From UHGV virus genome UHGV-0114065: a stretch of DNA of 10,838 nucleotides; one strand, written 5' to 3'. A program made the translations under genes and the position numbers. Shown here in pieces: positions 4,570 to 9,465 of this stretch (positions within the stretch are counted from its first letter, which is position 1; each line of letters begins with the position of its first letter). A model generated the notes under the pieces. That model did no database searches and had not been told where the DNA came from. It worked only from the letters and a program-made list of their open reading frames with translations. Source of the stretch: a virus.

Positions 4570-5151
4570 CTATCTAAACGTTGCACACGACTCATCTATC
4601 CATTTTTCATAAAATTGTATACCGAGATAGGCAAGAACAGATGGATGTATATCAACAAGCTTTTCGCCAAGATGTTCTGTTGGAGGTGGATAATCTTTGC
4701 CTTGGTTTCTTACGGTTATAGGCATAGTTGTTGCTGGATGAAACTCAACTATCATAGGGTCGCCTTCGTATTTTGCTATTTTCCCTGTTGAATCAATGAT
4801 TAACTCTTTAATATAATGGCTTCTTGCTCCCGGAAATGCCCCAAGAGTAGTATAAGGAGGTTCAAGTTTTGAGATTTCCATAGTGGAATGATGATCAGCA
4901 TTTCTTGCTTGGTGAAGGTAAGCAAGTGTTTTGTCTGTTTTTCTAAGCATGAACTTTTGGTTGAAGTGGCTGCTAAATTTTCCACTAACCGGCTTTGTTG
5001 CACAGAGCAACTTACTGAAAGACTTTTCTATATGCCCAAGACATTCTCGCCAGTGCATTTCAAAATCATCATGGTTTGTAGATGATTTCATCTGCTCTAG
5101 GCACTTTTTAGCTGCGATGATTTCTTTTTTTGCTGGGTTGTAATCGATCAT
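4570..5151 (-). CDS. Hypothetical protein (193 aa), translationally coupled downstream of mnt; function unknown
   Basis: Minus-strand ORF whose ATG (complement of 5149-5151) overlaps the mnt stop codon (ATGA overlap at 5148-5151). No TM segments and no motif I can assign. AT-rich. Confidence 0.7.
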   Translation of the reverse strand: MIDYNPAKKEIIAAKKCLEQMKSSTNHDDFEMHWRECLGHIEKSFSKLLCATKPVSGKFSSHFNQKFMLRKTDKTLAYLHQARNADHHSTMEISKLEPPYTTLGAFPGARSHYIKELIIDSTGKIAKYEGDPMIVEFHPATTMPITVRNQGKDYPPPTEHLGEKLVDIHPSVLAYLGIQFYEKWIDESCATFR

Positions 5152-6625: not shown

Positions 6626-6643
6626 CAGATAACCAACACGACA

Positions 6644-6667
6644 ACCCAGCTTCGGCTGGGTTTTTTT
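6644..6667 (+). terminator. Rho-independent terminator after ant (stem ACCCAGC / GCTGGGT, loop TTCG, then T7)
   Basis: Perfect 7-bp GC-rich stem with a TTCG tetraloop, immediately followed by TTTTTTT. Located 19 bp after the ant stop. Confidence 0.85.
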
Positions 6668-6725
6668 ATGCCCAAAATTCACCGTAGCCACGCTGCGGCG
6701 ATTCCTTGCATCTGGAGCAAATTAA

Positions 6726-8495
6726 ATGACAGACATTACAGCCAATGTGATCGTATCGATGCCTTCGCAACTCTTCACTATGGCGCGTTCTTTTAAAGCT
6801 GTTGCCAATGGCAAAATTTATATCGGAAAAATTGACACTGACCCGGTAAATCCTGAAAACCAGATTCAGGTTTATGTAGAGAACGAAGACGGCTCTCACG
6901 TTCCTGTTTCGCAACCAATCATCATTAACGCTGCTGGTTACCCGGTATATAACGGACAGATTGCCAAGTTCGTAACTGTGCAAGGCCATTCTATGGCTGT
7001 TTATGATGCGTACGGTGCGCAGCAGTTTTATTATCCGAACGTACTAAAATACGACCCGGATCAGTACAGTAAAATGGTCGGAGGCCTTACAACACCAGTA
7101 ACATGGCCTGGGTTTGCCGGAGGAGCAGATCCGACCGGAGTTAATTCATCTACAGCGGCTTTTCAAGCGTCATTGGATCAGATCGGCTACATTAACATGC
7201 CGCCAGGGGAGTACTTAATTGATGAAAGCTTAAACCTTGCAAAATCAGCTGTAATCTTTGGTGCTGGGAGATCGCTATCGAAGTTAAAATTCTCCGGGAA
7301 TTCTGCAACGCCTTTCGTTAAGGCTGCATTAGGGTACGCATCAACCGATTTAGTATATTTGCGTGATTTCACAGCCATTGCCACAGTTCCAAACTGCGGC
7401 CCTCTGGTTTCAATAAAAACAGATGCCGCCGCGCAATCTGCATCTCAGGTCGTTGTTGGTGATTTAGACAAACTAGTCATTAACAATGTTGATGCTTATG
7501 GTGATTCAAGCGGGAACTACTGGAATTGTGGCTTTGAAGCCATCGACTGCGGTGGTGTCCATATTCATAATTTCACAGTTAATAACAGGACTGTTTCGGC
7601 GCAAACTGACACATCGACATCTGGATTCAGGTTCAGAACTACGGCGCAAAAAGTAAGTGTAATACGCGCCCTGACAGCACAGGATTTCTACCTACTGAGA
7701 ATGTATTACGGCATCGACACGAAGCCGTTTAATAATCTCGGGGGCGGGATTACCAGTTATTATCTTTCCGACTTCGAAATCGTTGGCGTCAGGAATGGAA
7801 TAAGGGCTCAGAACTGGTGTGCGGCATGGCGAGTTACTGGGCATATCGATTCTACTGAGCAATGCCTAAACTTCCAGGGGGCGGGATTAACAAACGCACG
7901 GTTCACTGGCTGCGATTTCAGAAAAGGGAATAACGGCGGGCTAGGTTATGTTGCAGGACCAATGGTTACCCTGGACTACGGTGAGCAAATAACTTTCACG
8001 GGCGCGACGTTCTCCGGAATAAACCTCAATCTTGCTGACCCAAGCAATACTGCTTTTAGTTTTACCAATGCTTACAACGGCAACTGGGCATTTCTGATCA
8101 GTATTGACGGAAATACTTTTACTAAGTTTCACAACGTCATTGGGCAGACTAATAGCACCAATATTATTAGTATCGGCATTAATTCTTACAACCAGATTGC
8201 CGATGCAATAACCTTCGATTCAAATCTTGATCCAAGCTTTAGGCTTCAGACACCAATTCCAAGCATCAGCAAAGTTGTTGCCTTGCCAGTGGGAGATAGT
8301 ACATTTACCGTAAATGTTACCGCTAACCGTTTCAAAAATGCGCCTAACTATGCTGATGCTCGCCCGGTGAATAACCCAACTCAGAATGTCAGGGTTGTTT
8401 ATGATTATGCCGGATCTACAGCGAGCGCACTGCTTTTTAGGGTTTATGGAGTGGTGACCGCTGGGAACTTCCGATTTGGCATAATTACGGCATAA
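6726..8495 (+). CDS. Tailspike protein: P22 gp9-type N-terminal head-binding domain (about aa 1-115) fused to a divergent receptor-binding/enzymatic domain
   Basis: N-terminus [34 protein letters not shown]...VTVQGHSM...[11 protein letters not shown] matches the P22 tailspike head-binding domain from memory. Downstream of about nt 7070 the sequence is unrelated to the P22 endorhamnosidase domain. GGAG RBS at 6713-6716. Confidence 0.85.
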
Positions 8496-8513: not shown

Positions 8514-8807
8514 ATGCGAGATATTTCACCACTGCTTCATGCTGTCACCGCTTTAGCTGTTCAGGCTGCTTTTGGCCTTTCCTCACGCGATTGGATAACT
8601 GGGGGTCTGCTGGGGAGTCTTTGGTTTATCGCTCGCGAGCACACCCAGGCTGAGTATCGCTGGATTGCCCAGTTCGGCGCAGGGAAGCGCGCCAACATGC
8701 CGTGGTGGGGCGGGTTCTCCTGGCGCGCATGGAACCTTCCCAGCATGCTCGACTGGATTGTGCCGGTGGCGACCTGCGCTGCCGTTTATTTTGCCTCCAC
8801 CCTTTAA
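8514..8807 (+). CDS. Hypothetical small membrane protein (97 aa), G+C-rich cargo gene immediately downstream of the tailspike
   Basis: ATG at 8514 with AGGAG RBS 6 nt upstream. Two or three hydrophobic/Trp-rich segments by eye. Composition is visibly more G+C-rich than flanking phage genes. It sits where P22-like phages carry O-antigen conversion genes (gtr or oac). Confidence 0.6.
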   Translation: MRDISPLLHAVTALAVQAAFGLSSRDWITGGLLGSLWFIAREHTQAEYRWIAQFGAGKRANMPWWGGFSWRAWNLPSMLDWIVPVATCAAVYFASTL

Positions 8808-8863: not shown

Positions 8864-8883
8864 TACTGTATATAAAAACAGTA
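8864..8883. promoter_or_regulatory. LexA (SOS) box TACTGTATATAAAAACAGTA
   Basis: CTGT-N8-ACAG with 18 of 20 positions matching the E. coli consensus TACTGTATATATATACAGTA. It ends 1 nt before the AAGGAG RBS (8885-8890) of the downstream gene. Confidence 0.7.
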
Positions 8884-8898
8884 AAAGGAGTGCAGGTC

Positions 8899-9138
8899 AT
8901 GCCACGCCGTTCCGACATTCACGCCGCATTTGTGGCCGCAATACAGCTAAACCCCAAGGGCTACCGGTGCTTACGCACAGAAGACTTTATCCGCGAACTG
9001 GCAAAGGTCCACTGGCATTTCAGCCGGGCCGACGCCAACGAGTGGATAGAGCGCTATCAGCCCGACTTCACCGACAAGACAACTGACGGAACCGACAATC
9101 ACTACTGGATCCTGCGCAATATGGGGAGGGTTCACTGA
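8899..9138 (+). CDS. Hypothetical small protein (79 aa), first gene of the SOS-box-controlled cassette
   Basis: ATG at 8899 with AAGGAG 8 nt upstream; the ORF track starts it at a GTG at 8890 inside the RBS. Its stop overlaps the next gene's start (TGATG at 9136-9140). No recognisable family. Confidence 0.6.
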   Translation: MPRRSDIHAAFVAAIQLNPKGYRCLRTEDFIRELAKVHWHFSRADANEWIERYQPDFTDKTTDGTDNHYWILRNMGRVH

Positions 9139-9455
9139 TGGGCTTTCCTTCACCGGCGGGCGACTACGTAGAGCAGCGGTTAACACCGGAGCGTATCTGC
9201 GGGATCGGCATGGACAGCCGCATCCTCGAAACATCATCCGGCTTTGCCGTTATCGAACCGTGCACCAGGCTGGTACAGAATCAGGTTCTGCTGATTTTAT
9301 CTGGCGGCAGAACGCAGTTTGCCAGGGTAATGGGTAGGGCATTAATCACTGATGATGGTGAAGCGATCGAAGGGGAGGAGGCGGAGGAAGTTGAGGTGCT
9401 GGGGCGCGTGACGTTCTTCATCAACAGCGCGCTACAGGATGACAGGGTGGTTTGA
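9138..9455 (+). CDS. UmuD'-like protein (degenerate S24/LexA-type peptidase fold, starts at the position of the UmuD cleavage site; catalytic Ser/Lys not evident)
   Basis: N-terminus MGFPSPAGDYVEQRL matches UmuD residues 25-38 (GFPSPAADYVEQRI), the first residues of processed UmuD'. The C-terminal pattern EVEVLGRVTFFINSA resembles the last beta-strands of UmuD/LexA. GGGGAGGG RBS 7 nt upstream. I could not find the conserved Ser-Met and Thr-Val-Lys motifs. Confidence 0.65.
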   Translation: MGFPSPAGDYVEQRLTPERICGIGMDSRILETSSGFAVIEPCTRLVQNQVLLILSGGRTQFARVMGRALITDDGEAIEGEEAEEVEVLGRVTFFINSALQDDRVV

Positions 9456-9465
9456 TTGGGTGGCA

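Follow-up and report, generated by a model that had tools for sequence, protein, structure and literature searches.

The locus described here raises the question of whether a gene that begins like the tailspike gene of P22 and then departs from it encodes a working tailspike and, if so, what its product recognizes and how it acts. P22-like virions carry six trimeric gp9-type spikes, which are anchored through a head-binding domain and whose beta-helix domains attach to O-antigen or capsule and cleave it. In a first-pass annotation of the window (the whole stretch of DNA that was analysed, 10,838 nucleotides of the virus genome UHGV-0114065), the product of this gene was described as a mosaic tailspike with an exchanged receptor-binding domain. 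Our analysis supports this description. We conclude, with a probability of about 0.8, that the gene encodes a functional tailspike of a P22-like phage, that its receptor module was swapped in from about residue 117, and that the spike binds and cleaves a surface polysaccharide of Escherichia coli. The analysis shows where the domains meet, the fold class (by prediction), the rarity of the receptor domain, its purifying selection, its presence on several anchors and the species of the host. That the spike is a trimer, that its substrate is a polysaccharide, that it is catalytic and which residues carry out catalysis are points that we infer.

Genomic setting and head-binding domain

The window covers the right-hand end of a P22-like prophage. 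Its genes lie in the order gp7, gp20, gp16, sieA, a 193-amino-acid gene, mnt, arc, ant, the tailspike gene, three small ORFs and an IntS-type integrase gene. This is the typical position of a P22-like tailspike gene, as judged from Pfam labels on the identical contig L001 and from DNA similarity to P22, N7, 611R6 and phiv205-1. The identical prophage also lies on contig L001 (48 kb), where yfdC, mlaA, fadL, yfcZ, fadI and fadJ come after it. These 7.7 kb of flanking DNA match E. coli chromosomes with 100% identity, which identifies the host as E. coli; reads of the lysogen that carries the identical prophage are filed under SRR19776929. Related prophages use tRNA-Arg (argW) as their attachment site. 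The prophage is that of a Lederbergvirus-type temperate phage, integrated at argW beside yfdC in E. coli. The gene and its first domain are as follows.

6726..8495, + strand: tailspike gene, 589 amino acids plus stop codon (ORF list and translation)
6726..7070, + strand: head-binding (tail-attachment) domain, residues 1-115 (Pfam PF09008, PDB matches and DNA identity)

The Pfam model Head_binding (PF09008) matched residues 1-113 over its whole length (profile positions 1-113 of 113; E = 1e-66; 222.7 bits against a cut-off of 24). In the PDB, residues 1-115 matched the tailspikes of Sf6 (gp14; 7sg7, E = 7e-65) and P22 (gp9; 8tvr/2xc1, E about 1e-51), and past residue 115 phmmer found no match in any PDB chain. 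Over these 115 residues the protein is identical to P22 gp9 at 88 positions (77%) and to Sf6 gp14 at 103 (90%). At the DNA level, this region is 83-96% identical to its counterpart in the tailspike genes of P22-like phages and prophages. When 50,697 phage records and 5,426 complete E. coli genomes were searched by megablast, nucleotides 1-340/350 of the ORF were the only part that was matched, and this part was found in 1,106 of the 5,426 E. coli genomes.

In phiv205-1 (MN340231.1; L004 8134-10753), whose record spans most of the window, an insertion with transposase genes breaks up the head-binding part of the tailspike gene after about 72 codons and is followed by an ORF for a 917-amino-acid 'tail fiber protein'.

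The recombination junction and the exchanged block

Two features are needed to describe where the gene changes its ancestry.

7066..7076, + strand: recombination junction, codons Y-S-K-M, residues 114-117 (base-by-base comparison)
8514..8807, + strand: gene for a 97-amino-acid predicted membrane protein, directly after the tailspike gene (blastn and homologue positions)

Homology to P22-like sequences (N7, 611R6 and the N9 prophage) stops at 7065-7067 of the window, and homology to the receptor-domain donors, which are tailspikes of siphovirus prophages (L009 and L012), starts at about 7075-7095. No extended microhomology was visible in the base-by-base comparison of 7066..7076. The first-pass annotation had placed the junction near nt 7070, which is correct to within about 5 nt, and it had stated that the first 115 or so residues follow the P22 gp9 head-binding domain, which the PF09008 match and the 88 identities to P22 bear out. 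The central claim, a domain-swap mosaic in which a conserved P22-type anchor precedes a receptor region unrelated in sequence, is thus confirmed together with its breakpoint. A 'boundary sequence' annotated in CUS-3 was considered as the domain junction and rejected; it denotes the intergenic stretch ahead of the gene.

The extent of the exchange differs with the partner that is compared. By blastn, similarity to the siphovirus prophages L009 and L012 runs unbroken from about 7077-7095 to 8877-8901, across the stop codon and the 97-amino-acid gene. In a lytic phage (P0004), DNA homology to the window ends precisely at the stop codon. In temperate phages the exchanged unit exceeds the receptor domain and takes in the downstream 97-amino-acid gene. 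Similarity to the closest phages (phiv205-1, 611R6 and N7) is lost at 7065 and regained at 9459-9465, within int; therefore, the block that was replaced consists of the receptor domain and the three small ORFs.

Recombination also appears to have occurred within the receptor domain. P0003, a second P22-type tailspike, from a JGI metagenome, was compared with residues 111-589 of the window protein; it is 98-100% identical as far as about residue 350 and is then 95-100% identical to the P0005 lineage. The alignment indicates a crossover in the most conserved, putatively catalytic stretch of the domain.

A more distant protein has only the start of the module in common with these spikes. E. coli CUPF06 encodes a 642-amino-acid tailspike-like protein in a non-P22 prophage (L008 4892-6820); the common part is the module start, (L/M)(I/V)GGL.TPVTW.GF.GGAD.TG, with 40% identity over 68 amino acids, and the rest is unrelated. 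Spikes of siphovirus prophages may commonly recombine at this linker and cap segment.

The receptor region is predicted to be a beta-helix followed by a beta-sandwich

Structure prediction, which had been suggested as a check on the mosaic, divided the receptor region into two parts.

7110..8255, + strand: predicted right-handed parallel beta-helix, about residues 129-510, which starts with a degenerate pectate-lyase-type cap motif (residues 133-205)
8256..8492, + strand: predicted C-terminal beta-sandwich domain, about residues 511-589 (AlphaFold2 strands, model residues 401-478, after the helix)

The prediction was made for the monomer. AlphaFold2 reached a pLDDT of 76.6 with an 11-sequence alignment, and a pLDDT of 86.5 and a pTM of 0.78 with a 25-sequence alignment. 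In the model, a disordered linker is followed by short beta-strands (about residues 129-510) and then by a compact all-beta domain (about residues 511-589), that is, by a right-handed parallel beta-helix and a small beta-sandwich. The Sf6 tailspike was the top Foldseek match in the PDB, and the top match in BFVD was an uncharacterized protein of Pseudomonas phage MR4 (TM 0.61, 18% identity). In addition, hhalign detected faint homology to the first 160 or so residues of the Sf6 beta-helix (probability 91%). The model suggests that the C-terminal region has the fold expected of a tailspike receptor domain. With its PF09008 anchor, its gene position and this predicted beta-helix, the protein has three of the features by which a P22-like tailspike is recognized.

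At 9-18% identity, the fold matches are generic; non-catalytic adhesins (PfbA) and epimerases (AlgE4) are among them, and therefore the fold alone establishes neither catalysis nor chemistry. The sole Pfam signal of the receptor region, PF12708 (pectate lyase superfamily) on residues 133-205, covers profile positions 8-86 of 213 at 30.3 bits (cut-off 27). It represents a beta-helix cap motif that is degenerate here, and the relatives P0008 and P0011 have the canonical cap motif (54 and 51 bits). As the match comprises the cap and first rungs only, it is silent on chemistry.

These results refine the earlier statement that the receptor region is unrelated to the P22 endorhamnosidase domain. At the sequence level the statement stands: phmmer against the PDB aligned residues 1-115 only, the Pfam family for the P22 tailspike C-terminus gave no match, no similarity to gp9 residues 125-667 or thereabouts was found, and there was accordingly no full-length similarity to P22 gp9. 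It does not extend to the predicted fold, which belongs to the same right-handed beta-helix class, nor to the faint profile homology with Sf6. The contrast in length that had been drawn with P22 gp9 is correct, as the window protein has 589 residues and P22 gp9 has 667 (8tvr_A); Sf6 gp14 has 623.

A rare domain that occurs on several other anchors

The receptor domain is rare. Its 474 residues matched no PHROGs family and no NCBIfam model. Searches of 50,697 phage records by megablast and tblastn returned nothing beyond two trivial cap-motif matches, and 5,426 complete E. coli genomes gave zero matches, including in the 'distant' mode of blastn. Identity to an already characterized tailspike, against which the first-pass annotation had set its claim, was found in none of the databases searched (PDB, PHROGs, INPHARED phages and BFVD). 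A search across 5.8 billion proteins yielded just 11 relatives or clusters. With an HMM, 1.84 billion representatives gave about 20 full-length members (E < 1e-79) and 48 matches with E < 1e-30, beyond which lies a very large pectate-lyase-like superfamily. Among 185,579 GTDB species-representative genomes there was a single relative, in Silvania confinis H4N4, and none turned up when IMG/VR was scanned with the alignment of the family.

The receptor domain was found on at least six other N-terminal anchors, in siphoviruses, myoviruses and phages with several tailspikes. These homologous domains are 44-91% identical and lie behind a GpJ-type tail tip in siphoviruses, in baseplate clusters of myoviruses, and beside other tailspikes in a lytic phage. 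The anchors are as follows.

P0002, P0005 and P0007 (siphovirus prophages, E. coli and Silvania): anchor of about 140 amino acids, encoded directly after a GpJ-like tail-tip gene
P0006: variant of the siphovirus anchor of about 140 amino acids
P0004 (lytic phage): TSP1/Gp66-type N-domain (PF18668); the gene lies beside an S74-peptidase fibre gene and a capsule-depolymerase-like gene
P0009 (myovirus baseplate cluster): phiTE_241-type N-domain
P0010 (E217-like baseplate cluster): another anchor type
P0008 and P0012: further N-termini

This distribution points to sharing of the module across morphotypes, beyond swaps among P22-like phages alone. The siphovirus-prophage tailspikes P0002, P0005 and P0007 (loci L009, L012 and L014) are 74-91% identical to the window protein over the 470 or so residues of the receptor domain, have the module start VGGL..P(V/I) in common with it, and remain homologous through the downstream 97-amino-acid gene. 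They differ from it in their own anchor after the GpJ-like tail-tip gene, and none of them has been characterized.

In one E. coli assembly (GCA_036619115.1, contig JAZJUT010000001.1), whose domain is 76% identical to that of the window protein, P0005 and its upstream tail genes occur twice, about 46 kb apart (L012 and L013), and in both copies an ISL3-family transposase gene is inserted between the 96- and 104-amino-acid genes. The repeat could be a tandem or duplicated prophage.

The probable target

By analogy with related spikes, O-antigen would be the most probable target, with capsule as the alternative. In Lederbergvirus prophages, the receptor domains of the tailspikes follow the O-serogroup of the host, and their exchange crosses genus boundaries (Pas et al., 2023; PMC10408124). 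We consider it rather unlikely that the target is instead a capsule (a group 1 or 4 K-antigen, or colanic acid). Capsule-specific spikes do occur in P22-like phages, as in CUS-3, whose record annotates a K1 endosialidase, and in phiHS3, whose spike acts on a K47-like capsule (bioRxiv 10.64898/2026.05.19.726188), and the extreme rarity of the domain in E. coli genomes could suit an uncommon capsule type. However, the correlation with O-serogroup holds for most Lederbergvirus prophage spikes (PMC10408124) and, beyond the generic fold, the window protein showed no similarity to any known capsule depolymerase.

Conserved residues and candidate chemistry

The enzymatic reading, in which the spike cleaves its polysaccharide, draws on conservation within the family, which is highest in one stretch.

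7776..7985, + strand: most conserved stretch, residues 351-420, with the candidate catalytic residues E351, H373, D375, D397, K400, N403 and E420

Across 27 family members, D248, Y265, W266, R314, R325, E351, H373, D375, D397, K400, N403 and E420 are invariant or nearly so. The candidate residues between 351 and 420 are kept in 24-27 of the 27, down to 26% identity, and this stretch is also the best-conserved block between subfamilies. From E351 to E420 the conserved residues are spaced 22-24 positions apart, a distance that equals one coil of a beta-helix. They probably lie along a single face, on successive rungs, as in the active sites of beta-helix glycanases. In the region of the beta-sandwich, Y559, S564, F571 and R583 are invariant across the family.

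We favour, with low certainty, an endoglycosidase (hydrolase) mechanism over a lyase mechanism. Neither Pfam nor NCBIfam gave a GH or PL family signature, and the Pfam model for GH28, with its NTD, DD, GHG and RIK motifs, was not matched. It is doubtful that the domain is a polysaccharide lyase, and no hydrolase, that acts by beta-elimination on an O-antigen or capsule containing uronic acid, although the conserved His, Arg, Lys and Tyr would suit a lyase or epimerase-like mechanism too.

Two more specific assignments were tried and rejected. GH55, the name that NCBI gives to the homologue P0007, was rejected because the family profile aligns with the GH55 structure 5m5z in no more than two cap motifs, each of about 60 amino acids; no NCBIfam model matches either the window protein or P0007. 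Catalytic residues could not be transferred from Sf6, as the profile alignment ends at about residue 314 of Sf6, short of the catalytic E366 and D399.

A third reading is that the receptor domain is a binder only, a fibre-like adhesin with no enzymatic activity. We regard this reading as improbable, since E351, H373, D375, D397 and E420 are invariant in members that are only 26-33% identical and that occur on different phages. An invariant cluster of acidic residues and histidine is more typical of an active site, whereas a binding surface should vary with the receptor. Moreover, those P22-like phage spikes with a beta-helix that are known to have been studied act as enzymes.

A further suggestion goes beyond a cleaving spike, and we offer it tentatively, as a possibility that falls well short of the main reading. 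The receptor domain may found an undescribed family of polysaccharide-degrading enzymes (about 20 full-length clusters at 50% identity, with an invariant E-H-D-D-K-E set, outside the current GH and PL families) that is specific for an uncommon glycan of E. coli or other Enterobacteriaceae and serves as a portable cassette in podovirus, siphovirus and myovirus tails, moving with the 97-amino-acid membrane protein in temperate phages. If this were true, the role of the 97-amino-acid protein might be tied to the same glycan, for example through its modification or through superinfection exclusion.

A model for the tailspike

We propose a model for the origin and action of the spike. Recombination between nt 7066 and 7076 would have joined the receptor module to the head-binding domain, which would have been kept since it has to match the tail machine of the phage itself. 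Through residues 1-115, the spike, presumably a trimer, would attach to the tail hub. From about residue 117, the protein would consist of a horizontally acquired receptor-binding module, a right-handed parallel beta-helix and then a small beta-sandwich, which would bind and cleave the surface polysaccharide of a particular E. coli serotype. The active site would be formed by E351, H373/D375, D397/K400 and E420, on successive rungs of the helix, and cleavage of the polysaccharide would open a path for the virion to the outer membrane. In temperate phages, the module would travel with the downstream gene for the 97-amino-acid membrane protein.

Comparison with known systems

The spikes of P22 (gp9), Sf6 (gp14), HK620 (gp9) and CUS-3 (endosialidase) resemble the window protein in several respects. 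They have the N-terminal head-binding domain in common, their genes lie at the same place, with the ejection-protein genes and immI region ahead of them and int behind, and they follow the same plan, an anchor and then a beta-helix receptor domain. The break point is also the same, directly after the motif YDPDQ(Y/F). They differ in that their receptor domains have no significant sequence similarity to that of the window protein, save for the faint profile match to Sf6. Identity to other PF12708 beta-helix proteins (for example phi29 gp12, ORF18 of Geobacillus virus E2 and the A-module of AlgE4) is at most 9-16%; the similarity is restricted to the first 60-100 residues of the helix, and their catalytic motifs are not recognizable in the window protein.

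The cross-genus exchange described by Pas et al. (2023; PMC10408124) follows the same principle, in that anchors track phage taxonomy and receptor domains track the glycan type of the host. The likeness is one of principle; here, a podovirus prophage is linked with siphovirus prophages and myoviruses, and the unit includes the downstream gene in temperate phages.

Tailspike receptor domains set which serotypes a phage infects, and they can be reused in serotyping reagents, engineered tailocins or pyocins and phage cocktails. A conserved genus anchor with a horizontally swapped receptor domain was already known, and our results leave the understanding of tailspike evolution unchanged. The case is one of textbook modular exchange and is notable chiefly for the breadth of its anchors (podovirus, siphovirus and myovirus). 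What is new is the particular domain, which represents a rare, uncharacterized family that is absent from the phage isolates and the complete E. coli genomes searched. It extends the set of known E. coli modules for glycan recognition and possibly represents a new depolymerase family.

Expression signals and intactness of the gene

Two candidate expression signals lie upstream of the uninterrupted ORF.

6714..6717, + strand: Shine-Dalgarno sequence GGAG, 8 nt before the ATG (read from the sequence)
6643..6669, + strand: terminator-like hairpin with a T-run, in the gap that separates ant from the tailspike gene (pattern scan)

The stem of the hairpin is of 8 bp with 5 GC pairs and is followed by TTTTTTT; it sits inside an intergenic block that is kept in other P22-like phages.

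A protein identical to the tailspike (P0001) was present, with identical flanks, on contigs of three independent samples, and a fourth sample had the same architecture with a receptor domain that is 89% identical (P0003). Because the gene recurs in this way, the mosaic is no assembly chimera. The receptor domain had a dN/dS of 0.053 (dS 0.88) and 0.036 (dS 1.9) against two homologues. With values of about 0.05, the domain is therefore under strong purifying selection and the gene is functional. That the mosaic might be an assembly artefact or a decaying pseudogene of a defective prophage is thus highly improbable: although the sequence was found solely in metagenome and read-archive assemblies, one of the three contigs is of 48 kb and runs on into the E. 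coli chromosome, the domain of P0003 has diverged within the same architecture, and the block of ejection-protein, immI and int genes is wholly intact.

Neighbouring small genes

The 97-amino-acid protein belongs to PHROG 1443, to which no function is assigned there, and had no match in Pfam, NCBIfam or PADLOC. Judged by its sequence, it is likely to be a small membrane protein that has about three hydrophobic segments. In five other settings in E. coli prophages or phages (L006, L007, L008, L009/L010 and L012/L013), a homologue with 54-76% amino acid identity follows the tailspike gene directly or at a short distance, whatever the receptor domain. In L006, an O-acetylase gene lies between the tailspike gene and the homologue.

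Two further ORFs, at 8899-9138 (79 amino acids) and 9138-9455 (105 amino acids), fill the slot that holds gtrABC or an O-acetylase gene in other P22-like phages. We considered the three downstream small ORFs as O-antigen-modification genes of the gtr or oac type and rejected this assignment, as no such family was matched; PADLOC also found nothing among the neighbouring small ORFs. The 105-amino-acid protein starts with a UmuD/HumD-type motif, GFPSPAGDY; the match to HumD is limited to residues 1-21, and a Peptidase_S24 domain was not detected. At the corresponding position, L009 encodes a 129-amino-acid Peptidase_S24 protein. At 84-87% nucleotide identity, the pair of 79- and 105-amino-acid ORFs is found again in two E. 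coli strains: N9, where the site is likewise argW, and CUPF06, where the prophage is of a different type.

On the - strand between sieA and mnt, the 193-amino-acid ORF (4570-5151) belongs to PHROG 23516, again with function unassigned there, and had no match in Pfam or PADLOC. It is located in a low-GC (36-39%), moron-like part of the immI region and is thus a candidate for an accessory gene expressed from the prophage.
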